Virus record (IMG/VR): IMGVR_UViG_2703718824_000010
Span: 1-9,732 of that record
Reading direction: 5' to 3' (one strand)
From: a virus
Lineage: Duplodnaviria > Heunggongvirae > Uroviricota > Caudoviricetes
Length of the DNA stretch: 9,732 bases
The notes beneath the pieces are model-generated. The model saw only the letters and a list, made by a program, of their open reading frames with translations. It was not told the origin of the DNA and did no database searches. Below are positions 1 to 9,732 of this stretch, piece after piece (within the stretch, counting starts at the first letter, position 1; every line of letters starts with the position of its first letter). The position numbers were made by a program, and so were the translations under genes.

Positions 1-1
1 G

Positions 2-94
2 CAGCGGTCGGCAGGCGCTAAGGCAGAACTGGCACTGGCGGAGAAACTGGGGCATGCAGTTATTTTCCAGGAGGCAACCAGTGAGTGGGATTAA
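2..94 (+). CDS. 3' end of an upstream gene (partial, start outside window); unknown function
   Basis: Frame 2 is open from the window edge to TAA at 92..94. It competes with the 5' end of the next ORF, so only one of the two readings is real here. Confidence 0.3.
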   Translation, partial: QRSAGAKAELALAEKLGHAVIFQEATSEWD

Positions 95-425
95 TTATCA
101 GGCGCTGCGTGAGGCGGCACAAAACTATCAGTCGATGCTGGCGTGGTATCAGGAGAAACCAGACAGTCCAAACGCTGAGCAGGATTGTGATGCAGCTTTG
201 GCTGCGTTTAAGTGTGAAATCCGTCATCGTGAAGTGGATATTATCGCTGATTTGCTGGATGAACTGGAGGAAGCAAAACAGCGTATCGACGAGCAGGAGT
301 CCCGCATAGTGAAGTTACCAGAACCATTCAAGCTGGCTAAATCATCAAGTGGATTAACGTACTACTACGCTGATGAGGTCAATGCCGCACTGACTGCTGC
401 TGGTATTCGCATAGAAGGAGAGTGA
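54..425 (+). CDS. hypothetical phage nin-region protein (123 aa; alternative GTG start at 81)
   Basis: ORF with ATG at 54 preceded by GGAGA (40..44). An alternative GTG at 81 is preceded by a better AGGAGG (69..74, 6-nt spacer). Stop TGA 423..425 sits directly before the next gene's start. No family recognised by eye. Confidence 0.6.
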   Translation: MQLFSRRQPVSGINYQALREAAQNYQSMLAWYQEKPDSPNAEQDCDAALAAFKCEIRHREVDIIADLLDELEEAKQRIDEQESRIVKLPEPFKLAKSSSGLTYYYADEVNAALTAAGIRIEGE

Positions 426-426
426 G

Positions 427-795
427 ATGACCACTATTACCAAAGAGCGACTGCAATGGCTGGCTAACATTTCTGGCCGCGATGACATTGACGATATAGA
501 CGGCGGTGAAATTCGTGAGCTGGCGCTTATCGCACTGGCATCGCTGGAAGCAGAGCCAGTGGCAAAGATTATAGCTCATTACCCATTAGGAGTTGACGTA
601 GGCAAACAAAAGTTCGTACAGGCCATTGGAGAGCTTCCTGACTTTGGCGGATATCTATTTGCCGTCCCGCCAGCGCTGGTAGTGCCTGATAAGTCGCCGC
701 GTGAATACATAAGAGGTTGGCCTCTTGCGCATAGTGATTATGCTGAAGGATGGAACGATTGCCGTGCTGCAATGCTTAATGGAGATAAATCATGA
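427..795 (+). CDS. hypothetical phage protein (122 aa)
   Basis: ATG 427 follows the upstream stop by 1 nt and is preceded by AAGGAG (415..420). Acidic N-terminal region. The stop overlaps the next start (ATGA at 792..795). Confidence 0.7.
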   Translation: MTTITKERLQWLANISGRDDIDDIDGGEIRELALIALASLEAEPVAKIIAHYPLGVDVGKQKFVQAIGELPDFGGYLFAVPPALVVPDKSPREYIRGWPLAHSDYAEGWNDCRAAMLNGDKS

Positions 796-1145
796 TTGAT
801 CGAACCAAACTGGAGCACATCCTCGAATATGCCAGGCAGCAGAGGCATATTGGTCAGCATTGTAAAATTCCACCAGGAGATATGGTTGAAATCATGGAGA
901 TTGCCATGTGCAAGGCTGGCAATTCTCCGGTAACTCCGGATGGTTGGATAAGCTGTAGTGAGCGAATGCCGCCAGTTGGTGTTGATGTACAACTGTTTGT
1001 GTCCAGCACGGGGGAACAGTTTACAGGTTTTAACCTGGATAATACGGGTGACTTCCAGTATGCGCAGTGTTTCGGTGCGCCTATCGTGTGTGAAGCCACA
1101 CACTGGATGCCGCTACCAGAACCGCCGAAGGAGGTGCGCCAATGA
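792..1145 (+). CDS. DUF551-like phage protein (117 aa)
   Basis: ATG 792 overlaps the upstream stop, with GGAGA at 782..786. The C-terminal THWMPLPEPPK matches my recollection of DUF551 prophage proteins; this is recalled, not searched. Confidence 0.65.
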   Translation: MIDRTKLEHILEYARQQRHIGQHCKIPPGDMVEIMEIAMCKAGNSPVTPDGWISCSERMPPVGVDVQLFVSSTGEQFTGFNLDNTGDFQYAQCFGAPIVCEATHWMPLPEPPKEVRQ

Positions 1146-1225
1146 GCTGGCCTGAGGCCTTCTCAAATGTTGGTATTGCAATGGCGGTGGCGCTGGTGGT
1201 GTATTCGATTTGCCGCTGGGGATAA
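1142..1225 (+). CDS. small hydrophobic peptide, 27 aa (MSWPEAFSNVGIAMAVALVVYSICRWG), putative single-pass membrane peptide
   Basis: Strong SD AAGGAGG (1128..1134), 7-nt spacer, ATG 1142 overlapping the upstream TGA (ATGA coupling). Hydrophobic core consistent with one transmembrane helix. Below the 60-aa cutoff of the ORF track. Confidence 0.45.
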   Translation: MSWPEAFSNVGIAMAVALVVYSICRWG

Positions 1226-1317
1226 AAACGGTTTGCGGGGAAAGAAGAGTTAAGTAGAATTGCTGCGGGTGCTTGAGGCTGTCTGCCTCGGGCATGCCGC
1301 CGTAAGGCAGACAGAGA

Positions 1318-1395
1318 AAAGCCCCAGTTAACATTACGCGTCTTGCAGGACGCTTAACATTAATCTGAGGCCCAATCTATGCTTCACAAACGTAG
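1318..1395 (-). ncRNA. candidate Sok-like antisense RNA opposite the mok start region
   Basis: Minus strand has a possible promoter (TTGCCT, 17 nt, TAACCT) right of the mok start and an imperfect hairpin followed by a U-run (GGGGCUUUUCUCUG) ending near 1320. Placed by analogy to hok/sok; boundaries approximate. Confidence 0.3.
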
Positions 1396-1591
1396 GTTAG
1401 CCTCTTACGTGCCGAAAGGCAAGGAGAAGCAGGCTATGAAGCAGCAAAAGGCGATGTTAATCGCCCTGATCGTCATCTGTATTACCGTTGTTGTGACGGC
1501 ACTGGTAACGAGGAAAGACCTCTGCGAGGTACGAATCCGAACCGGCCAGACGGAGGTTGCTGTCTTCGTAGACTACGAATCTGAGAAGTAA
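1379..1591 (+). CDS. Mok-like in-frame N-terminal extension of hok (70 aa)
   Basis: ATG 1379 is in frame with hok and adds 19 codons (MLHKRRLASYVPKGKEKQA), the arrangement recalled for chromosomal mok/hok pairs. Weak SD CTGAGG upstream. Confidence 0.45.
   Translation: MLHKRRLASYVPKGKEKQAMKQQKAMLIALIVICITVVVTALVTRKDLCEVRIRTGQTEVAVFVDYESEK
1436..1591 (+). CDS. hok: Hok/Gef family type I toxin (51 aa membrane peptide)
   Basis: MKQQKAMLIALIVICITVVVTALVTRKDLCEVRIRTGQTEVAVFVDYESEK: transmembrane segment followed by the TRKDLCEV.IRTGQTEVA motif characteristic of Hok/Gef/RelF. SD AAGGAGAAG (1421..1429) before ATG 1436. Confidence 0.85.
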   Translation: MKQQKAMLIALIVICITVVVTALVTRKDLCEVRIRTGQTEVAVFVDYESEK

Positions 1592-1600
1592 GAGTGACCA

Positions 1601-1622
1601 GGCGAGGGAGAAATCCCTCGCC
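1601..1622 (+). other. 9-bp stem-loop just 3' of hok (GGCGAGGGA / GAAA / TCCCTCGCC), possible mRNA 3'-end fold-back element
   Basis: Perfect 9-bp inverted repeat with a 4-nt loop, 10 nt after the hok stop. No U-run follows, so it looks more like a stabilising or fbi-like element than a classical terminator. Confidence 0.45.
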
Positions 1623-1712
1623 ACCTCTGATGTGTCAGGCATCCTCAACGCACCCGCGCTTTACCATACTGAAAATGCTGTTTGAATGTTCATTTCTGAA
1701 AGAGGACTATGA

Positions 1713-2057
1713 ATGAAAAAGGTATTGATTGCAGCACTTATTTCCGGTGTGTCTTTTGGCGTTTTTGCACAGCAGGGTGGTTTCCAGGGGCCTGAAGCAG
1801 AGCGTTCAACAGTAGCGCAGGCAAAAGAACTGAAGGATGATGCATGGGTTATCCTTGAAGGGAGCATCATTAAAAAAGTGGGTGATGAACGTTATGAGTT
1901 TCGTGACAATAGCGGGACAATTGTCACGGATATTGATGACAGCGTATGGGCCGGGCAGAATGTTTCTCCGAAAGACAAAGTAAGAATTGAGGGTGAAATT
2001 GATAAAGACCTGAGCAGTGTTGAAGTTGATGTAAAGGCACTGAAATTATTAAAGTAA
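1713..2057 (+). CDS. YgiW/YdeI (BOF, DUF388) family OB-fold periplasmic protein with signal peptide
   Basis: SD AAGAGGA before ATG 1713. N-terminal signal peptide MKKVLIAALISGVSFGVFAQQ. The mature part (GFQGP...AWVILEGSIIKKVGDERYEFRDNSGTI.V.ID...V.IEGE.D) matches the YgiW-family pattern. An intrinsic terminator follows. Confidence 0.85.
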   Translation: MKKVLIAALISGVSFGVFAQQGGFQGPEAERSTVAQAKELKDDAWVILEGSIIKKVGDERYEFRDNSGTIVTDIDDSVWAGQNVSPKDKVRIEGEIDKDLSSVEVDVKALKLLK

Positions 2058-2075
2058 CCGTCCCGGCTTGCTAAG

Positions 2076-2102
2076 CCCGTCTTACTGACGGGTTTTCTGT
2101 TT
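2076..2102 (+). terminator. rho-independent terminator after the ygiW-like gene
   Basis: CCCGTC / TTACT / GACGGG stem-loop followed by TTTTCTGTTT. Confidence 0.6.
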
Positions 2103-2179
2103 GTACATTCCAGGCGTATTGACTTACAATTCGCGCCGTCAGCCTGAACAACTGACACCTGCTGTCACCGGAGAATCCG

Positions 2180-2452
2180 ATGACACAACACATAAAATCC
2201 CACAATTCTGAAGCCGACCCGGAAATTAAGCGGGGGTGGCGTTTTCGTACGCCTCAGTATGGCTGGTTTCACTATCTGTTCTGTACGACCGATGAGGCAG
2301 ATATGCTTCAAGAGGCGTATCTGCGTCGCGGTGTCCGTGTGGAGCGGAGTCTGAACGTTGATCGTCTGACCTGGACCGTTTCTGTATATCTTCCTGTTCG
2401 CGCACATCTGCCACGAACAAATGCCTGCTACCGTCAGCGTGTCTGGAGATAA
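2180..2452 (+). CDS. hypothetical phage protein (90 aa)
   Basis: GGAGA (2170..2174), 5-nt spacer, ATG 2180. Stop TAA 2450..2452 abuts the next gene's GTG at 2454. No family recognised. Confidence 0.55.
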   Translation: MTQHIKSHNSEADPEIKRGWRFRTPQYGWFHYLFCTTDEADMLQEAYLRRGVRVERSLNVDRLTWTVSVYLPVRAHLPRTNACYRQRVWR

Positions 2453-2453
2453 T

Positions 2454-3503
2454 GTGCGGGTATTACTTCGACCTGTTCTGGTCCCGGAACTTGGCCTGGT
2501 GGTCATTAAGCCAGGTCGCGAATTACTGCCGGTTTTTCATCGCGGCAGGGTGCTGGTGGAGCCGGAACCCAAAAGCATGCGGAGTTTGCCGTCCGGGGTT
2601 GTTCCTGTCGTTTGCCAGCCGCTGGCTGAGGATAAATCATTACTGCCATTTTTCAGCAATGAACGGGTGATTCGTGCCGCTGGCGGTGCTGGTGCGCTGT
2701 CTGACTGGTTATTACGTCACGTGAAATCCTGCCAGTGGCCACATGGCGATTATCATCACAGCGAAACCGTCATTCACCGTTATGGTACCGGCGCGATGGT
2801 GTTGTGCTGGCACTGTGACAACCAGCTGCGCGACCAGACATCAGAATCACTCGATCAACTTGCTCAGCAGAATCTGGTTGCCTGGATGATTGACGTCATC
2901 CGTCATGCAATAAGCGGTACGCAGGAGAGGGAGTTATCGCTGGCCGAATTATCCTGGTGGGCGGCCTGCAATCAGGTGGTGGATGCATTACCTGAGGCAG
3001 TAGCGCGTCGTTCGCTGGGATTACCAGCGGAAAAAATCCGCTCCGTATACCGTGAGAGTGACATCGTACCGGGAGAACAGACAGCCATCAGCATACTGAA
3101 GCAGCGCACAAAAAATATTGCGCTGCCACTTCACGTCCACCAGCAACAAAATCCACCACAGAAAAAAACGGTTGTCAGTATCGCTGTTGATCCGGAGTCT
3201 CCTGAATCGTTCATGAAGCGGCCTAAACGTCGCCGTTGGGTTAATGAGAAATACACGCGCTGGGTAAAGACACAGCCGTGTGCGTGTTGTGGTAAGCCTG
3301 CTGACGATCCGCATCACCTGATTGGTCATGGTCAGGGGGGAATGGGGACAAAGGCCCACGATATTTTCACGCTACCGTTGTGCCGGGAACATCACAACGA
3401 ACTTCATGCAGACCCGCTGGAGTTTGAGAAAAAGTACGGCTCTCAGGTTGAGTTAATTTTTCGTTTTCTTGATCACGCCTTTGCAACCGGCGTGCTTGGG
3501 TAA
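2454..3503 (+). CDS. DUF968 / NinG-like prophage protein with C-terminal HNH-type Cys/His motif (349 aa from GTG 2454; the ORF track's ATG 2421 would overlap the upstream gene)
   Basis: Long ORF whose C-terminus carries CACCGKP..DPHHLIGHG.......C.EHHNELH, a zinc/HNH-like signature. GTG 2454 is preceded by GGAGA (2444..2448) and starts 2 nt after the upstream stop. Resemblance to Qin-prophage YdfU-type proteins is recalled, not searched. Confidence 0.7.
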   Translation: MRVLLRPVLVPELGLVVIKPGRELLPVFHRGRVLVEPEPKSMRSLPSGVVPVVCQPLAEDKSLLPFFSNERVIRAAGGAGALSDWLLRHVKSCQWPHGDYHHSETVIHRYGTGAMVLCWHCDNQLRDQTSESLDQLAQQNLVAWMIDVIRHAISGTQERELSLAELSWWAACNQVVDALPEAVARRSLGLPAEKIRSVYRESDIVPGEQTAISILKQRTKNIALPLHVHQQQNPPQKKTVVSIAVDPESPESFMKRPKRRRWVNEKYTRWVKTQPCACCGKPADDPHHLIGHGQGGMGTKAHDIFTLPLCREHHNELHADPLEFEKKYGSQVELIFRFLDHAFATGVLG

Positions 3504-3515
3504 AAGAGGTTACTG

Positions 3516-3878
3516 ATGCGTATAGAGTTTGTTTTGCCTTATCCGCCGACGGTGAATACTTACTGGCGACGTCGTGGCAGCACATATTTTATATCTGAGG
3601 AGGGAAAGTGCTATCGCCGGGCAGTGGCGCTTATTGTTCGCCAGCAGCGGCTGAAATTAAGCCTGTCCGGAAGGCTGGCGATAAAGGTGATTGCAGAGCC
3701 ACCGGATAAGCGCCGCCGTGACCTGGATAATATCCTGAAAGCGCCGCTGGATGCGCTGACGCATGCAGGGTTGTTAATGGACGATGAGCAGTTTGATGAA
3801 ATCAATATTGTACGTGGCCAGCCAGTATCTGGTGGACGGCTGGAGATAAGAATTACAGAGGTGGGTGTGCATGAATAA
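3516..3878 (+). CDS. rusA: RusA Holliday-junction resolvase (120 aa)
   Basis: AAGAGG before ATG 3516. The size and the motifs PPT.N.YW....G, DKRRRDLDNILKAPLDALTHAG.L.DD and GGRLEI.ITE match RusA, including the catalytic acidic-residue region. Confidence 0.9.
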   Translation: MRIEFVLPYPPTVNTYWRRRGSTYFISEEGKCYRRAVALIVRQQRLKLSLSGRLAIKVIAEPPDKRRRDLDNILKAPLDALTHAGLLMDDEQFDEINIVRGQPVSGGRLEIRITEVGVHE

Positions 3879-4560
3879 CCAGTATTTACAGTTTGTTCGT
3901 GAGCAACTCATGATTGCCACTGCGGATCTCAGTGTGTCGATAAAAGGCCAACTGGAAGCCTGGCAGGAAAATGCACTGTTCGATACAGGGCGTTACAGAC
4001 GCAAAAAAATTCGTTACCGCGATGAGGTAACCGGAAAAATGATCACGCGGGATAACCCACCGATCCCGGGTAAACAATCACTGGCGAAAGGGACGTCAAT
4101 TGCTCTGGTCAGTCCGGTTGAGTTTTCGACATCATCATGGCGACGTGCAGTTCTGGAACTGGAAGCGCATCAGAAGGCGTGGTTGTTGTGGTGTTACGGC
4201 GGAAACATTTGCTGGGAGTATCAGATTGCGATAACGCAGTGGGCGTGGAATGAATTTAATACTCAATCCGGTACCAGAAAAATAGCTGGGAAAACGCTGG
4301 AACGTCTGAAGAAGTTGATCTGGCTGGCGGCGCAAGCGGTAAAAGCTGAGCTTTTTGGTGGGGAAGGTTATGAATACCGGGATCTGGCATCACTGGTGGG
4401 AGTGACATCAAAAAACTGGTCTGAGACATTTACTGAACGCTGGGTTGCAATGAAGCACATTTTTCTACAGCTTGATAGCCAAGCTTTATTGCTTTTAACG
4501 AAAACACGTTCAAAACAAAAGACCACATTTTCACAGCAAAATATTGCAAAACTGGATTAA
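3865..4560 (+). CDS. putative late-gene antiterminator Q-like protein (231 aa; possible start at ATG 3871)
   Basis: Assigned mainly by position: immediately after rusA, and its 3' end overlaps a strong sigma70 promoter followed by a nearby terminator, the pR'/tR' arrangement. No Q zinc-finger motif could be confirmed by eye, so the family is uncertain. Confidence 0.5.
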   Translation: MCMNNQYLQFVREQLMIATADLSVSIKGQLEAWQENALFDTGRYRRKKIRYRDEVTGKMITRDNPPIPGKQSLAKGTSIALVSPVEFSTSSWRRAVLELEAHQKAWLLWCYGGNICWEYQIAITQWAWNEFNTQSGTRKIAGKTLERLKKLIWLAAQAVKAELFGGEGYEYRDLASLVGVTSKNWSETFTERWVAMKHIFLQLDSQALLLLTKTRSKQKTTFSQQNIAKLD

Positions 4561-4572
4561 AAAGCATATATT
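4544..4572 (+). promoter_or_regulatory. candidate late promoter pR' (-35 TTGCAA, 17-nt spacer, -10 TATATT)
   Basis: Near-consensus sigma70 hexamers with ideal spacing overlap the stop of the Q-like gene. The predicted start near 4579 would give a roughly 70-nt transcript ending at the terminator at 4623..4649. Confidence 0.5.
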
Positions 4573-4622
4573 TCATGTAAATCTGATATTTTGCCGATTT
4601 TGTACGCGATGGCAAAGTAAGC

Positions 4623-4649
4623 AAACCCCGCCGCCGAGCGGGTTTTTTT
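4623..4649 (+). terminator. rho-independent terminator (tR'-like)
   Basis: AAACCCCGC / CGCCGA / GCGGG followed by seven T residues. Confidence 0.7.
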
Positions 4650-4753
4650 GTTGGCTTAACAGGTTATAATGTACAGTGCGAAACTGCCTGTTCAGCAGAA
4701 TCATTTTGTTTGTAGTGGAGTTCACAAGTCGTCATTATCAGGCAAAGAGATTT

Positions 4754-5155
4754 ATGGTGTTAAAGTATCAGCCGTCTGTTCGTTCTGTTTTAATGTGTGA
4801 TTTTCGGGGAATGGTTGTTCCGGAAATAGTCAAGGTCAGGCCAGTGGTAGTCGTGTCCAGAAACAGACACAACAATCAATTGGTAACAGTGGTACCAATA
4901 AGCACTACTGAACCGATTCCTCGCAGAGATTGCCATCATGAGTTATCAGAAAACCCCATCCCTGGTAATGAGCATATTACTTGTTGGGTAAAATGTGACA
5001 TGTTGATGACGGTTTCATTGAGCCGACTGGATCGCATAAAAACTAGAACCTGGGAGGGGCGAAATTATATTGTTCCTATGATTGCGGAAGATGAGTTTGA
5101 GAATATTAAACGGGCGGTATTGCACGGGATAGGGATGGCTTATCTGTATCGATAA
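4754..5155 (+). CDS. MazF/PemK/Kid-fold protein, putative endoribonuclease toxin (133 aa), with no adjacent antitoxin gene
   Basis: AAAGAGA before ATG 4754 (the track's longer ORF from 4676 lacks an RBS). VLMCDFRGMVVPEIVKVRPVVVVSRNRHNNQLVTVVPISTTEP follows the PemK/MazF N-terminal pattern (..DF.P..G.E....RP.vVvS ... vvP.T) as recalled. Confidence 0.65.
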   Translation: MVLKYQPSVRSVLMCDFRGMVVPEIVKVRPVVVVSRNRHNNQLVTVVPISTTEPIPRRDCHHELSENPIPGNEHITCWVKCDMLMTVSLSRLDRIKTRTWEGRNYIVPMIAEDEFENIKRAVLHGIGMAYLYR

Positions 5156-5172
5156 TCGAAAACGATTATCGA
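5149..5172. repeat. perfect 10-bp inverted repeat with AAAA spacer (TCGATAATCG aaaa CGATTATCGA), operator-like palindrome overlapping the stop codon
   Basis: Read directly from the sequence. With flanks, four TCGA tetramers lie within about 30 bp. No U-run follows, so it is not a typical terminator. Confidence 0.6.
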
Positions 5173-5190
5173 ATTCGATATGAATTTATA

Positions 5191-5219
5191 TTGACACACA
5201 TAGTGTGTTGACTGATACT
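5191..5219 (+). promoter_or_regulatory. candidate sigma70 promoter (-35 TTGACA, 17-nt spacer, -10 GATACT) with AT-rich upstream flank
   Basis: Consensus -35 and acceptable -10 with an AT-rich UP-like stretch (TATGAATTTATA). It points into a leader carrying an SD and two terminators. Confidence 0.5.
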
Positions 5220-5308
5220 GTCGCTGTACCCTGATGGGACTTGTGAGACTTCCGAACTGGAAGCCAGGAGTAGCAATAAGGTGATGACAAGCCTGCTGCC
5301 CCTGTGTA

Positions 5309-5340
5309 AAAGGCACCTTAATGGTGCCTTTGTCGTTTTT
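5309..5340 (+). terminator. intrinsic terminator 1 in the leader (AAGGCACC / TTAAT / GGTGCCTT + TGTCGTTTTT)
   Basis: 8-bp perfect stem followed by a T-rich tract. Confidence 0.55.
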
Positions 5341-5350
5341 ATCAAAAGAT

Positions 5351-5375
5351 CCCCGCCACTGGCGGGTTTTTTTTT
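5351..5375 (+). terminator. intrinsic terminator 2 in the leader (CCCGCC / ACT / GGCGGG + nine T)
   Basis: GC-rich hairpin followed by nine T residues. The pair forms a tandem terminator about 90-150 nt downstream of the 5191..5219 promoter. Confidence 0.7.
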
Positions 5376-5418
5376 CAAAATATTGGTGTGTCACGTTAAC
5401 CGGAAAAAGGAAAAAGAC

Positions 5419-5616
5419 ATGCTGAAACAGCAGGATATGACAGAAACCGCCAGAGTGGTGTTTAATGAATTAAGTGCCACCGAACCGGCGACAGTCGGGG
5501 AGATTGCGCAGAATACTTATCTTTCACGTGAACGCTGCCAGTTAATACTGACCCAGCTTGTTATGGCGGGTCTGGCAGACTATCAGTTCGGTTGTTACAG
5601 ACGCCTTCAGTCCTGA
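5419..5616 (+). CDS. small winged-helix DNA-binding protein, PapI/FaeA-like (65 aa)
   Basis: ATG 5419 has only a weak AAGGA upstream. TVGEIAQNTYLSRERCQLILTQLVMAGLA resembles the PapI/FaeA recognition-helix region as recalled. The stop lies inside a terminator hairpin. An in-frame upstream GTG/ATG (5281/5284) with strong AGGAG would read through both leader terminators. Confidence 0.6.
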   Translation: MLKQQDMTETARVVFNELSATEPATVGEIAQNTYLSRERCQLILTQLVMAGLADYQFGCYRRLQS

Positions 5617-5628
5617 AGGCTTTTTTAT
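5603..5628 (+). terminator. rho-independent terminator after the small wHTH gene
   Basis: GCCTTCA / GTCC / TGAAGGC followed by TTTTTT. Confidence 0.6.
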
Positions 5629-5766
5629 TTGTGGTAAATGGGCGGCTGGTGGGTGTTAGGGGCACTCACCAGCCATCTGCTCATGCGTCCGGATCACAAG
5701 CAAACCTCAGGCCCACTGCTTTGCGCAAAAGCAGAATGAGCCTATCAGAGACAGGCTTAATGATCC

Positions 5767-6825
5767 ATGCTTAATACTGTAAAAATATCCAGTTGTGAGT
5801 TAATCAACGCCGACTGCCTGGAATTTATCCGGTCGTTACCCGAAAATTCTGTTGACCTGATAGTCACGGACCCGCCGTACTTTAAAGTGAAGCCTGAGGG
5901 CTGGGATAACCAGTGGAAGGGCGACGATGATTACCTGAAGTGGCTGGACCAGTGTCTGGCGCAGTTCTGGCGGGTGCTGAAACCTGCCGGAAGTCTTTAC
6001 CTGTTCTGTGGCCATCGCCTGGCATCTGACATTGAAATCATGATGCGTGAACGCTTCAGTGTGCTGAACCATATTATCTGGGCGAAGCCGTCCGGACGCT
6101 GGAACGGGTGCAACAAGGAAAGCCTGAGGGCGTATTTCCCCGCCACAGAGCGCATTCTGTTCGCGGAACATTATCAGGGGCCGTATCGTCCGAAAGATGC
6201 CGGGTATGAGGCGAAGGGCAGGGCACTGAAACAGCATGTGATGGCCCCGCTGATTGCTTACTTTCGTGATGCACGTGCTGCCCTGGGGATAACGGCAAAA
6301 CAGATTGCTGATGCCACAGGAAAGAAAAACATGGTGTCGCACTGGTTCAGTGCCAGTCAGTGGCAGCTACCGGACGAAAGCGATTATCTGAAATTACAGG
6401 CGCTGTTTGCCCGGGTGGCAGAAGAGAAGCATCAGCGCGGAGAACTGGAAAAGCCACATCACCAACTGGTCAGCACATACAGTGAACTGAACCGACACTA
6501 TACGGAACTGCAGAGTGAATATAAGCATCTGCGGCGGTATTTCGGTGTGACGGCGCAGGTGCCGTACACCGATGTGTGGACGCATAAACCGGTGCAGTAC
6601 TATCCCGGGAAACATCCGTGCGAAAAACCGGCAGAAATGCTGCAGCAGATAATCAGCGCGAGCAGTCGTCCGGGTGACCTGGTTGCAGATTTTTTCATGG
6701 GGTCGGGTTCGACAGTCAAAGCAGCGATGGCGCTGGGGCGTCGTGCAACTGGCGTTGAGCTGGAGACTGAACGTTTTGAGCAGACGGTCAGGGAAGTTCA
6801 GGATTTAGCCAGTCAGAACGGATGA
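5767..6825 (+). CDS. beta-class DNA N6-adenine/N4-cytosine methyltransferase (352 aa), phage Dam-like orphan methylase
   Basis: Motif IV DPPY near the N-terminus (LIVTDPPYF) and motif I FxGxG near the C-terminus (DFFMGSGSTVKAA), the beta-class order typical of the N6_N4_Mtase family. ATG 5767 is the first start after an in-frame TGA. Confidence 0.9.
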   Translation: MLNTVKISSCELINADCLEFIRSLPENSVDLIVTDPPYFKVKPEGWDNQWKGDDDYLKWLDQCLAQFWRVLKPAGSLYLFCGHRLASDIEIMMRERFSVLNHIIWAKPSGRWNGCNKESLRAYFPATERILFAEHYQGPYRPKDAGYEAKGRALKQHVMAPLIAYFRDARAALGITAKQIADATGKKNMVSHWFSASQWQLPDESDYLKLQALFARVAEEKHQRGELEKPHHQLVSTYSELNRHYTELQSEYKHLRRYFGVTAQVPYTDVWTHKPVQYYPGKHPCEKPAEMLQQIISASSRPGDLVADFFMGSGSTVKAAMALGRRATGVELETERFEQTVREVQDLASQNG

Positions 6826-6865
6826 TATTGCAGGATTAGTTACGTACCGTTATTATCCTGCGCCC

Positions 6866-6941
6866 GGCCCTTTAGCTCAGTGGTGAGAGCGAGCGACTCA
6901 TAATCGCCAGGTCGCTGGTTCAAATCCAGCAAGGGCCACCA
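6866..6941 (+). tRNA. tRNA with anticodon CAU (Met, or Ile2 if lysidine-modified; ileZ-like in Stx phages)
   Basis: Hand-folded cloverleaf: acceptor GGCCCTT/AAGGGCC, D-arm GCTC..GAGC, anticodon loop CTCATAA, T-arm GCTGG-TTCAAAT-CCAGC, encoded 3' CCA. Confidence 0.9.
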
Positions 6942-6948
6942 TCACATA

Positions 6949-7025
6949 CCGCCATTAGCTCATCGGGATAGAGCGCCAGCCTTCGAAGCTGGTTGCGCGG
7001 GGTTCGAGTCCTCGATGGCGGTCCA
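6949..7025 (+). tRNA. tRNA-Arg (anticodon UCG)
   Basis: Acceptor CCGCCAT/ATGGCGG, anticodon stem CCAGC/GCTGG with loop CTTCGAA, T-loop TTCGAGT, encoded CCA. Confidence 0.85.
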
Positions 7026-7038
7026 TTATCTGTACACT

Positions 7039-7115
7039 GCGTTGTTAGCTCAGCCGGACAGAGCAATTGCCTTCTAAGCAATCGGTCACTGGTTCGAATC
7101 CAGTACAACGCACCA
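7039..7115 (+). tRNA. tRNA-Arg (anticodon UCU)
   Basis: Acceptor GCGTTGT/ACAACGC, anticodon stem ATTGC/GCAAT with loop CTTCTAA, T-arm ACTGG-TTCGAAT-CCAGT, encoded CCA. Confidence 0.9.
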
Positions 7116-7200
7116 CACTTATTTTTCCTGGCTCGCTTTTGTGGGCCTTTTTTGCCTCCGCGCCACGCCCGGCGCATATCAACCACAGAGCCTTTCACAA

Positions 7201-8136
7201 ATGGTTTTTCAGGAGTCCAATAATCGCGATGTCGCCAGAAAATACGCAGAGTACATCACGTCCGTTCCTTTGCGTCGGTTTGTCGCTGAAAAAGTGCGGG
7301 AATATTGTGGTGATCTGCCCCTGAGTATTTTTGATGGTGCGTGTGGCTCCGGGCAACTGGAGCAGTTTCTCACGGTGGGAAGTCTGTATGCTGTGGATAT
7401 ACAGGCCTCTCCGTTGTTGCATATCCCGGATAATTTCCCGGATGCCACAGTGAAGACGGTCAATGAAAATTTCTTCAACGCCATCGATGATGTCAGTGAC
7501 ACGGACACGTTCGATTGTGTCATCATGAATCCGCCTTTTTCGCTACAGTACAAAGCACAGAGCGCGGATATCAGGGAGAAGATTTCAGCGATGATGCCTT
7601 ATAAAAAGACCTCCGGTGTTCTGGATGACGCGTTTTATGTTCTGGCGAGCATGAAGGCAAGATTTTCATTTTTTTTGTGCTTTCCCGGGGTTGGTTACAG
7701 GCGTGGTGAGCTGGCAATGCGTCAGTATTTTGGCAACCGCGTTGTTGAGTTGGTTCAGATTTCAGGCGGGTTCGCTGATACATCGGTTTCTGTATTATTC
7801 GTCATTATTGATAACGAAAAGCAAAGCGATGATGTTGTTGTTTATGGCGTCGGGTTTAATGGGGAAACTTGCAAAAAGTCAGCGCCGGTGACGGAGAAGA
7901 TTAACACAGACAACTGGAACAGGCCGTACATTGCTGAAGAGAAGGAGGTCATTGACATTGTACAGGTGACGGCTGAGTTGCTTGTAAGGCAAACAAGAAG
8001 ACGGAAACTTGAAGATGAGCATAACGCCTTTGTGTGGTCCTTAATGAGTGATGATCAGCGGACGGAGGTTTCCCGTTTTCTGTCAGTGCACGGTTTGTTT
8101 TTTGATGCCGGTTCAGGTTGTGTGCACATACGTTAA
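7201..8136 (+). CDS. gamma-order SAM-dependent N6-adenine methyltransferase-like protein (311 aa from ATG 7201; the track's ORF opens at GTG 7141, too close to the tRNA)
   Basis: Motif I FDGACGSGQLEQF (like HsdM DPACGSGGFL) lies upstream of motif IV DCVIMNPPF, the gamma-class order. No signal peptide and no Stx-like features. No obvious SD before 7201. It is short for a DNA methyltransferase with a full target-recognition domain. Confidence 0.7.
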   Translation: MVFQESNNRDVARKYAEYITSVPLRRFVAEKVREYCGDLPLSIFDGACGSGQLEQFLTVGSLYAVDIQASPLLHIPDNFPDATVKTVNENFFNAIDDVSDTDTFDCVIMNPPFSLQYKAQSADIREKISAMMPYKKTSGVLDDAFYVLASMKARFSFFLCFPGVGYRRGELAMRQYFGNRVVELVQISGGFADTSVSVLFVIIDNEKQSDDVVVYGVGFNGETCKKSAPVTEKINTDNWNRPYIAEEKEVIDIVQVTAELLVRQTRRRKLEDEHNAFVWSLMSDDQRTEVSRFLSVHGLFFDAGSGCVHIR

Positions 8137-8200
8137 ATCTGGTGCCGGTCGCTGGTTGCCGGTGTCGTGATGATTGTCTTCCTGTTGCCCCGAAAATTTT

Positions 8201-8439
8201 AAATGTCTCACAATTCAGACGGTTGACAGTTGTCTGATTTGCGGGGAGTTTGTTAAAAGAAACTGGCATGGTGAATCCCCCTGAGCGGAGGGGCATATCA
8301 GCGACAGGTGTTTGGTTACATCCCTTATCCTTTCTGTGCGGGTTCAGGTGCTGATACTGAACTCACCGGGAGGCACCCGGCACCATGCGCATGATGATAC
8401 AGATACGCAGCGTCAGCCCCTCTCCGGAGGGGCTTTTCT
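8201..8439 (+). repeat. structured non-coding module, copy A (candidate sRNA gene): conserved 5' box, two hairpins, intrinsic terminator
   Basis: Shares ordered blocks with copy B: CTCACAATTCAG, TTTGTTAAAA (extended -10-like), hairpin CCCCT-GAGCGG-AGGGG (8276..8294), CTGAACTCACCGGGAGGCACCCGGCA (hairpin 8366..8380), and terminator AGCCCCTC/TCCG/GAGGGGCT+TTTCT (8415..8439). Candidate ORFs inside are not conserved between copies. Confidence 0.5.
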
Positions 8440-8512
8440 GTGCCGGATACATCACAGTTTCTGGAACCTTGGGTACTACAGTATCAGTCAGGGTGCTATA
8501 TTTTCAGATGTG

Positions 8513-8614
8513 ATGAAAGCCTGTCAGCAGGCAGGGCGTATCGGAAATGACCCAGTAGAGAAAACGTTGACTCAGATACCGGTGCTGAGTTACCGGGAAA
8601 CCGGCATCACATGA
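8513..8614 (+). CDS. possible 33-codon small ORF (MKACQQAGRIGNDPVEKTLTQIPVLSYRETGIT), speculative
   Basis: Extended -10 TGcTATATT at 8494..8502 just upstream and a terminator just downstream, but no SD. The longer 100-aa track ORF (8312..8614) runs through the copy A hairpins and terminator and is rejected. Confidence 0.2.
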   Translation: MKACQQAGRIGNDPVEKTLTQIPVLSYRETGIT

Positions 8615-8628
8615 CCGCTATCCTTCCA

Positions 8629-8656
8629 GGCCCGTCCGCTCCGGTGGGCCTTTTTA
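8629..8656 (+). terminator. intrinsic terminator (GGCCCGTCCG / CTC / CGGTGGGCC + TTTTT)
   Basis: GC-rich imperfect stem followed by five T residues. Confidence 0.5.
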
Positions 8657-8679
8657 CTGCAGAAAACAGGTTCCCCGTT

Positions 8680-8929
8680 AAATGCTATGTTGCTCACAAT
8701 TCAGTCAGTTGAAGGTTGTCTTCCCGACTGAGAATTTGTTAAAAAATTTCTGCATGATGAATCCCCCTGTGCGGAGGGGCGGCTGGTGTACGGAATGGTC
8801 TCTGATGATCGTTAGCGAGAATGACGCGGGTTCGGTGGCACCGGGCTGAACTCACCGGGAGGCACCCGGCATCATGTAATGAACGGTACATAGCGCTACT
8901 CTTCAGCCCCTCTCCGGAGGGGCTTTCTT
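8680..8929 (+). repeat. structured non-coding module, copy B (candidate sRNA gene), paralogous to copy A
   Basis: Same block order as copy A: CTCACAATTCAG, TTTGTTAAAA, hairpin CCCCT-GTGCGG-AGGGG (8764..8780), CTGAACTCACCGGGAGGCACCCGGCA (8849..8870), terminator AGCCCCTC/TCCG/GAGGGGCT+TTCTT (8905..8929). The stretches between blocks have diverged. Confidence 0.5.
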
Positions 8930-8933
8930 ATGG

Positions 8934-8964
8934 ATAAAAAAAGCCCGCATGGTGAGATGCGGGC
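8934..8964 (-). terminator. hairpin GCCCGCAT / GGTGAG / ATGCGGGC preceded by an A-run on +, i.e. a minus-strand intrinsic terminator (or insulator)
   Basis: 8-bp perfect stem. The + strand has AAAAAAA upstream and no T-run downstream, so it would terminate leftward minus-strand transcription. Confidence 0.4.
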
Positions 8965-9161
8965 AGCAAGGAATAAACAACAAAACGTGAAGTAATCAAT
9001 TTTTCAGCTGGAGAATAATACCCGACAGTAATCACTCTGCGCAACTGCGCGGCCTTTTTCGTATTGCGGGCTGTAGTCTTCCTCCTGCCATTGTCCTGTA
9101 ACTTCCGGACTTCAGCCCGCCCCTCATCTGACTCACAACATTATCCCGACCGGGAGGATTC

Positions 9162-9732
9162 ATGGCATTTAAACACTATGACGTGGTCAGGGCGGCGTCG
9201 CCGTCAGACCTTGCGGAGCGACTGACTCAAAAACTGAAGGAGGGGTGGCAGCCATTTGGCAGTCCTGTCGCCATCACGCCTTATACCCTGATGCAGGCCA
9301 TTGCGGCGGAAGGTGATGTCACCACACCTGTGTTAGTGAAGCCGTCGGCTGGAGAAGGCACAGTAATCAGCGCCACCAGAGACCCGGAGTATTACTTTGT
9401 TGTGGTTCTGGCGGGGCAGTCAAACAGCATGGCATATGGTGAAGGCCTTCCGCTGCCGGAGACATATGACCGTCCGGACCCGCGTATTAAGCAGCTGGCG
9501 CGCCGCAGTACAGTGACACCGGGTGGTGCCGCCTGTAAGTATAACGACATTATTCCGGCGGACTATTGTCTGCATGATGTGCAGGACATGAGCCGTCTTA
9601 ACCATCCGAAAGCGGACCTGTCAAAGGGGCAGTACGGAACCGTGGGGCAGGGGCTGCATATCGCCAAAAAACTGCTGCCGTTTATACCGGCGAATGCGGG
9701 TATTTTGCTGGTTCCGTGCTGCCGTGGTGCTT
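9162..9732 (+). CDS. nanS-p: NanS-p-like sialate O-acetylesterase (N-terminal DUF1737 plus start of SGNH/SASA domain); partial, continues past the window
   Basis: GGGAGG (9152..9157) before ATG 9162. The N-terminus MAFKHYDVVRAASPSDLAERLTQKLKEGWQPFGSPVAITPY matches the DUF1737 start of Stx-prophage NanS-p/YjhS-like esterases as recalled. A GQSN block (SGNH block I) follows. Open to the window edge. Confidence 0.8.
   Translation, partial: MAFKHYDVVRAASPSDLAERLTQKLKEGWQPFGSPVAITPYTLMQAIAAEGDVTTPVLVKPSAGEGTVISATRDPEYYFVVVLAGQSNSMAYGEGLPLPETYDRPDPRIKQLARRSTVTPGGAACKYNDIIPADYCLHDVQDMSRLNHPKADLSKGQYGTVGQGLHIAKKLLPFIPANAGILLVPCCRGA

Follow-up and report, generated by a model that had tools for sequence, protein, structure and literature searches.

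A putative solitary adenine DNA methyltransferase gene in the stx slot of a lambdoid prophage

What stands, in a lambdoid prophage that has no stx genes, at the place where Shiga-toxin (Stx) phages carry their toxin, and how much of the sequence around it is cargo? This question is raised by a stretch of 9,732 nucleotides (positions 1 to 9,732 of the IMG/VR record IMGVR_UViG_2703718824_000010; hereafter the window, meaning the whole stretch), in which an open reading frame (ORF) for a protein of 311 residues lies between three tRNA genes and nanS-p. We consider that the place is probably filled by a single-gene cassette. Its predicted product is a small N6-adenine DNA methyltransferase of phage type that stands alone; by analogy with better-known late-region genes, it would be made late in dependence on Q and act against restriction. 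The rest of the slot is backbone.

The slot, its occupants and its flank

The window covers the late-regulatory region of a lambdoid prophage without stx, a relative of the Shiga-toxin phages. It is 100% identical to a prophage integrated next to ompW in E. coli 2013C-3033, an O146:H21 ST442 Shiga toxin-producing E. coli with two stx1c genes elsewhere on the chromosome (PMC12113909). Its genes run in the order DUF968, RusA, Q, a PemK/MazF-like ORF with small ORFs, a 352-residue beta-class methylase, three tRNAs, the 311-residue ORF, about 1 kb of geneless sequence, nanS-p and then lysis genes. The Stx2 phage ASU11 has the identical backbone order, with stx2AB filling the place from the tRNAs to nanS-p, and the position of the methylase is therefore the stx slot. 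Both the window and the 2013C-3033 prophage, when compared with ASU11, follow the Stx-phage order of Q, (beta-class methylase), tRNAs for CAU, Arg and Arg, cargo, STnc100, nanS-p and holin/lysis genes. A preliminary description of the window had placed the methylase in the stx slot, and the collinearity with ASU11 bears this out. The order that it gave (Q, pR', tRNAs, cargo, nanS-p) also holds, except that the PemK/MazF-like ORF, the small ORFs and the beta-class methylase had been omitted.

The limits of the cargo can be read from homology. Against three other variants of the slot, homology extends from the last tRNA to 7151-7196 and comes back at 8186-8207, so that the insert between these limits holds the methylase gene only. 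The leader in front of it shares 91-96% identity with its counterparts in ASU11 (to 7164) and in a prophage with TerB/DUF3927 cargo (to 7196). By blastn in distant mode, the interior of the cassette was found in 12 of 5,426 complete E. coli genomes, always at 99.5% identity or more and within at least two different prophage backbones. The methylase DNA had no match among 50,697 phage records, and a near-identity search with 7116-9161 matched the STnc100/nanS backbone only. It is thus not the common methylase of Stx phages, which favours the preliminary description. In a spread sample drawn from the roughly 10,000 homologous places in E. coli genomes, the slot is elsewhere empty or holds TerB with DUF3927, DUF3927 with a hypothetical gene, IraM, or stx2. 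The place of stx thus serves for cargo in general, the methylase being a rare occupant, and the swap of stx for the methylase is an ordinary moron exchange. The same Q-to-nanS module occurs in strain 48 (from deer) at another site, in a prophage with a different integrase. Since the module is found in two prophages that differ in integrase and site, it travels among lambdoid phages by recombination. Literature searches brought up neither a report of a methylase at the stx position nor one of a phage HsdM that has no target-recognition domain (TRD).

A second lineage of the slot arrangement is present in the metagenome contig ERZ27287602 k141_1676, in the order RusA, a different Q (DUF1133 type), three tRNAs, a methylase homologue 80% identical to that of the window, 226 nt and nanS-p; this slot has neither STnc100 nor an M.EcoGII-type gene. 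Between the two methylases, the ratio of nonsynonymous to synonymous substitution rates (dN/dS) is 0.098 at a dS of 1.2. Because of this ratio, and because the homologue lies in the same tRNA-to-nanS-p slot, the gene is under purifying selection and appears functional, with a history in the stx slot. One might suppose instead that the prophage is cryptic and the gene no longer functional but in decay. Indeed, several genes of the 2013C-3033 prophage are frameshifted, including those for the terminase small subunit and the portal, and the RefSeq start sites of the methylase are inconsistent. However, its ORF is intact and of full length, with all family-invariant residues present. Given also the low dN/dS and the near-identical copies in 12 genomes and at least two backbones, we regard decay as extremely improbable.

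As judged by comparison with other phages, the approximately 1 kb before nanS-p is known backbone, neither cargo nor a new island of small RNAs (sRNAs). No credible ORF was found in 8137-9162; an ORF of 100 residues at 8312-8614 was rejected as a gene, since it runs across parts of the proximal STnc100 copy and of the remnant described below. Two paralogous modules (8207-8436 and 8693-8926) are 69% identical and share the same terminal hairpin with a T-run, in agreement with the preliminary description. The sRNA-like island that it proposed does consist of sRNA genes, but these are two copies of STnc100 (RF02076; model length 206, gathering score 47) and hence neither new nor cargo. A decayed STnc100-like unit stands as a third, and suggests repeated tandem duplication and decay of the STnc100 gene. 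ASU11 has one STnc100 copy, which begins 74-75 nt after stx2B; phi296, whose slot is empty, has one directly after the tRNAs; and PhiR5_2 has two copies, no methylase, and collinearity with the window over 8191-9230. It is because STnc100 occupies the same place in all these situations that the stretch is assigned to the backbone. Identity to phi296, ASU11 and SCU-171 is 84-86% over the block 8677-9230, and the proximal copy shares 71-78% identity with the STnc100 gene of phages that have just one. Thus the view that the downstream 1 kb is special to the methylase slot has to be given up: it is the usual stx-flanking sequence, which had been named beforehand as the finding that speaks against that view. 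For Stx-phage biology, this means that the structured RNA beside the slot is fixed and the cargo is variable.

STnc100 has been described downstream of stx2 and also in outer membrane vesicles (PMC12370729). It is related to PasD, and its usual context adjoins nanS-p (bioRxiv 10.64898/2026.05.13.724894). In EDL933 there are eleven copies; RNA-seq and Northern blot show copies there expressed as a discrete small RNA, and copies of this region are expressed without induction (PMC5331693). The anti-sRNAs AgvB and AsxR were rejected as the identity of the modules; they belong to separate Rfam families, neither of which appears at E<=1 in 8100-9250. On the minus strand, within the conserved spacer that separates nanS-p from the distal STnc100, a strong terminator-like hairpin with a run of seven T (8943-8964) has a promoter-like site (9140-9168) about 180 nt upstream. 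This pair may produce an antisense small transcript; Rfam gave only chance-level matches for it.

Class, fold and family of the methylase

By motifs, profiles and fold, the product of the 311-residue ORF is a gamma-class N6-adenine DNA methyltransferase of predicted activity. The motifs follow the gamma order: AEYIT..LR (X), FDGACGSGQLE (I) and MNPPFS (IV), then FPGVGYR. All catalytic motifs are intact, and 40 homologues show no variation at G49, S50, G51, N110, P112 and F113. These homologues align from residue 1, and E5, N8, R9, A16, E17 and T20 are likewise invariant in them; the ATG at 7201 is therefore the true start. RefSeq starts the gene later, at TTG 7270 (288 residues) or, in the strain 48 genome, at 7375 (253 residues), and both models are truncated because the conserved N-terminal sequence is cut off. 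In RefSeq the gene stands under three different truncated starts or names, one genome having 'type I restriction-modification system subunit M'. No hsdS, hsdR or nuclease gene lies near the ORF, whose neighbours are tRNAs and sRNA genes; motifs and neighbourhood alike agree with the preliminary description of a gamma-order methylase without a partner. A PADLOC scan gave weak generic methylase matches only (mad2, E 3e-7) and no defence-system context.

Among the profiles, PHROG 6380 ('DNA methyltransferase') matches over the whole length at E 2.1e-78 (residues 1-294 on positions 8-350 of 382). PF02384 (N6_Mtase) is passed marginally, at 21.7 bits against a gathering threshold of 20.4, and the HsdM equivalog TIGR00497 failed at 25.6 bits against a cut-off of 242.75. 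In the AlphaFold2 (AF2) model, with a pLDDT of 91.5, residues from about 20 to 205 form a Rossmann core; a small beta subdomain follows at 211-233, and at the C-terminus a long helical hairpin at 253-296. Type I HsdM, M.TaqI, M.BseCI and CamA match it best in structure, and the fold is nearer to solved DNA N6-methyladenine (m6A) methyltransferases than to those acting on RNA, protein or small molecules. A fold search of BFVD gave no close full-length counterpart, the top TM-score on the query being 0.58, to much longer proteins.

Weak matches to MTS (PF05175, 19.9 bits) and to the PrmC equivalog TIGR03534 (20.8 bits) could suggest that the enzyme methylates RNA or protein instead of DNA, as an rRNA or tRNA m6A methylase or a PrmC-like glutamine methylase; one source labels a homologue 'predicted RNA methylase'. 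Both scores, however, are far below the curated cut-offs (23 and 199.1), the match takes in regions beyond the Rossmann core, and FPGxGYR together with NPPF is of the HsdM type. We find such a substrate very improbable. Profiles and fold, taken together, favour a DNA methyltransferase over an rRNA or protein enzyme, which answers a question that the preliminary description had left to searches of this kind.

It was also proposed there that the protein is too short for a full TRD, and this proved correct in the AF2 model. The family profile matches EcoR124II HsdM at E 8e-16 in the catalytic domain only (HsdM residues 196-415); the enzyme has neither the HsdM N-domain nor a TRD. Since there is no TRD, the sequence specificity may be perhaps for a short motif, or relaxed. 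Another possibility is that the protein is inactive alone and depends on a partner, its C-terminal hairpin docking on the resident HsdS of the host or on another S-like protein so that type I specificity is copied onto phage DNA. Its nearest solved relatives by sequence and fold are indeed type I M subunits, Foldseek alignments to those of PacII and EcoR124I cover 325-340 columns, and a protein without its own TRD could use such help. The hairpin is also collinear with the C-terminal helices 473-514 of EcoR124 HsdM, but this match is not significant alone (i-Evalue 48). Moreover, the HsdM N-terminal domain is missing, the C-terminus is poorly conserved across Enterobacteria, Pasteurellaceae, Fusobacterium and Streptococcus, and many members carry a clamp-binding-like end peptide instead. 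Dependence on HsdS therefore seems distinctly unlikely to us.

PHROG 6380 is a small, phage-restricted family, uncharacterised but recognisable, and the E. coli gene is a rare new member of it. An exhaustive profile search of 1.84 billion representatives gave 55 cluster representatives at E<1e-30, a number that rises to 161 at E<1e-10; the full-length members have about 280-350 residues. The homologues are always solitary genes in prophages or phages, of Providencia, Pasteurellaceae (Mannheimia), Fusobacterium and Streptococcus; one belongs to the nin region in a prophage of Providencia, and another is a moron in a head module. Hia5-type non-specific methylases were ruled out as relatives, being of the alpha class (PMC5778455).

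A C-terminal peptide resembling a beta-clamp-binding motif is present in 33 of 185 full-length homologues, against a chance of 0.003 per protein. The tails include QLSIF, QISIF, QMDLF, QLTLF, QLNLF, QLGLF and QLKLLSLF; many of the 33 members come from few subclades, with at least ten distinct tails. The methylase of the window itself has no such motif, its tail being ...SVHGLFFDAGSGCVHIR. In the members that have it, the peptide suggests methylation coupled to replication. It is tempting to see in this family of proteins of about 300 residues ('mini-HsdM'), with the core and C-terminal helices of HsdM retained, a third, gamma-class phage route to broad adenine methylation, partner-guided or promiscuous and without a TRD, beside the alpha-class Hia5 group and the beta-class M.EcoGII (PMC5778455). 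For about a fifth of the members the partner would then be the sliding clamp of the replisome, bound through the C-terminal QLxLF peptide, and for the others it could be a dimer mate or host HsdS. If so, the prophage would have two mechanistically different promiscuous adenine methylases flanking its tRNA triplet. We hold this extension as rather doubtful.

Expression and the proposed role

The preliminary description had put the cargo under the control of pR' and Q, and this can be judged plausible. A candidate late promoter pR' overlaps the end of Q and is followed by a tR'-like terminator; the scan found 18 terminator-like sites in 4400-9300, against 4.6 +/- 2.3 in shuffled sequences. A further terminator-like hairpin with a T-run lies in the conserved leader before the methylase (Table 1), and a promoter scan of 7116-7200 found no passing site. 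Since no promoter-like site precedes the gene directly, and since it lies behind both the pR'/tR' pair and the leader terminator, it should be silent in the lysogen until antitermination by Q. After induction, Q-antiterminated RNA polymerase would transcribe the methylase, as it does stx2 and would the M.EcoGII orthologue further upstream. Acting on the replicating phage DNA, the enzyme would then methylate its adenines, so that the progeny could escape restriction in the next host. This scheme draws on two analogies. Expression of stx and of the late genes requires pR' and Q (PMC8065619). M.EcoGII, for its part, is not expressed in lysogens, is toxic on expression and presumably comes on when the prophage is induced (PMC5778455, PMC12707154). 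In Stx phages, a pR'-like site with a strong terminator within about 60 nt is also the layout that yields a short pR'-tR' RNA (StxS-type); no Rfam family matched the corresponding region 4544-4650.

The upstream beta-class methylase is identical to M.EcoGII at 333 of 353 aligned positions (94%; the reference was machine-read text from the supplement of PMC11551740, and a few differences may be reading errors). It is 97% identical to the methylase of phage 1720a-02 and 97% to that of Stx2a_1447. By these identities it is an M.EcoGII orthologue, of a type common upstream of the tRNAs in Stx phages. M.EcoGII is a non-specific adenine methylase (PMC5778455) that is used in chromatin footprinting. 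Two unrelated adenine methylases thus flank the tRNA triplet of the window, the M.EcoGII orthologue lying 375 bp upstream of the gamma-class gene.

Several points weigh against late, protective methylation by the gamma-class enzyme. Both its expression and its methylation are predictions, from sequence and by analogy. If the M.EcoGII orthologue is as non-specific as its namesake, a second adenine methylase would seem redundant for protection, which leaves room for a distinct role, either with a partner or in the lysogen. In a protein modelled without a TRD, productive DNA binding by the enzyme alone may be doubted. Finally, a weak sigma-70 match found by eye (TTGCCT-17-CATATC, 7152-7180) is a possible promoter of the gene.

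This last site bears on the proposal that the methylase is a regulator in lysogenic conversion. From its own promoter or by read-through from the tRNAs, it would be expressed in the lysogen and would alter host gene expression or protect the chromosome. Morons of the late region can have their own promoters (PMC8065619), and the STnc100 copies of the same region are expressed in uninduced EDL933 (PMC5331693). However, the promoter scan of the leader was empty, a terminator-like hairpin stands ahead of the gene, and comparable orphan methylases, namely M.EcoGI/II and those of group A Streptococcus (GAS) prophages, are silent in lysogens (PMC5778455, PMC8597746). We consider a role in the lysogen unlikely, and Q-dependent expression for the protection of phage DNA is still preferred. 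If the enzyme is active alone, its rules of specificity are worth knowing, and it could become a footprinting tool like M.EcoGII and Hia5.

Neighbouring features and known systems

The features of the slot and of its surroundings are collected in Table 1. Just 3' of tR', a PemK/MazF-like toxin ORF (PF02452, E 8e-14; 4676/4754-5155, plus strand) has no obvious antitoxin beside it; strain 48, whose module is otherwise identical, does not have this ORF. In the nin region there is a type I toxin-antitoxin pair, in which a sok antisense RNA (RF01794, 117.7 bits; 1267-1441, plus strand) overlaps a hokD-type ORF (1379/1436-1591, plus strand).

Table 1. Positions of the predicted features in and around the slot, in window coordinates.
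Feature	Position	Strand	Basis or remark
Q	3865-4560		PF06323, E 6e-90
Candidate late promoter pR' (TTGCAA-17-TATATT)	4544-4572	+	Consensus scan; overlaps Q end; putative function
tR'-like terminator with T-run	4627-4642	+	Terminator scan; element pR'-tR' spans 4544-4650
Beta-class adenine DNA methyltransferase, 352 aa (DPPY ... FxGxG), predicted	5767-6825	+	PF01555, E 7e-44
tRNA triplet, left slot border	6866-7115	+	ARAGORN, Rfam, RefSeq annotation
tRNA(CAU) (RefSeq: Ile)	6866-6941	+	ARAGORN
tRNA-Arg(UCG)	6949-7025	+	ARAGORN
tRNA-Arg(UCU)	7039-7115	+	ARAGORN
Shared backbone leader	7116-7196	+	Terminator-like hairpin 7130-7147 with T-run
Cargo cassette, about 990 bp	about 7197-8185	+	Sole slot part without counterpart in the other slot variants compared
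Solitary gamma-class N6-adenine DNA methyltransferase ('mini-HsdM'), 311 aa, predicted	7201-8136	+	
STnc100, proximal (divergent) copy	8237-8443	+	RF02076, 134.9 bits, model 1-206; terminator 8415-8434
Decayed STnc100-like remnant	8484-8657	+	RF02076, 28.5 bits, E 5e-4, sub-threshold; terminator 8628-8651
STnc100, distal copy, the usual one beside nanS-p	8723-8935	+	RF02076, 164.6 bits, model 1-206; terminator 8905-8924
nanS-p, 5' part, right slot border	9163-9732	+	SASA family carbohydrate esterase / NanS; RefSeq and phage annotations

Among known systems, the stx2AB cassette of Stx2-converting phages, such as ASU11 and the 933W type, is the nearest in position. It shares with the methylase cassette the insertion point between tRNA-Arg(UCU) and STnc100/nanS-p, the upstream leader to about 7164 and the expected dependence on pR' and Q (PMC8065619), and it differs in carrying a toxin, whereas the cargo here would be an enzyme that modifies phage DNA. 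The STnc100 copies are essentially like those of the family elsewhere (RF02076), and the tandem of two with a remnant is also found in PhiR5_2.

In structure, the closest systems are type I M subunits (HsdM; EcoR124I/II, PDB 7bst; S. thermophilus, 3lkd). These are about 200 residues longer and have the N-terminal domain that is missing here; the members of the present family have no adjacent hsdS or hsdR and are always solitary in phages. M.TaqI, M.BseCI and CamA each have a DNA-recognition domain of their own, of 150-300 residues, whereas in the 311-residue methylase just the beta subdomain, some 25-40 residues long, and the helical hairpin come after the core. In presumed function, the closest are M.EcoGII and M.EcoGI (PMC5778455), which are also orphan adenine methylases of prophages. 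Their genes stand between Q and the lysis genes in Stx-type phages, where they would be silent until induction, and the enzymes are presumed to counter restriction. They are of the beta class and have no sequence relation to the gamma-class enzyme. The M.EcoGII type is common in Stx phages and lies upstream of the tRNAs, whereas the gamma-class methylase is rare and lies downstream of them, in the slot that ASU11 fills with stx2AB.

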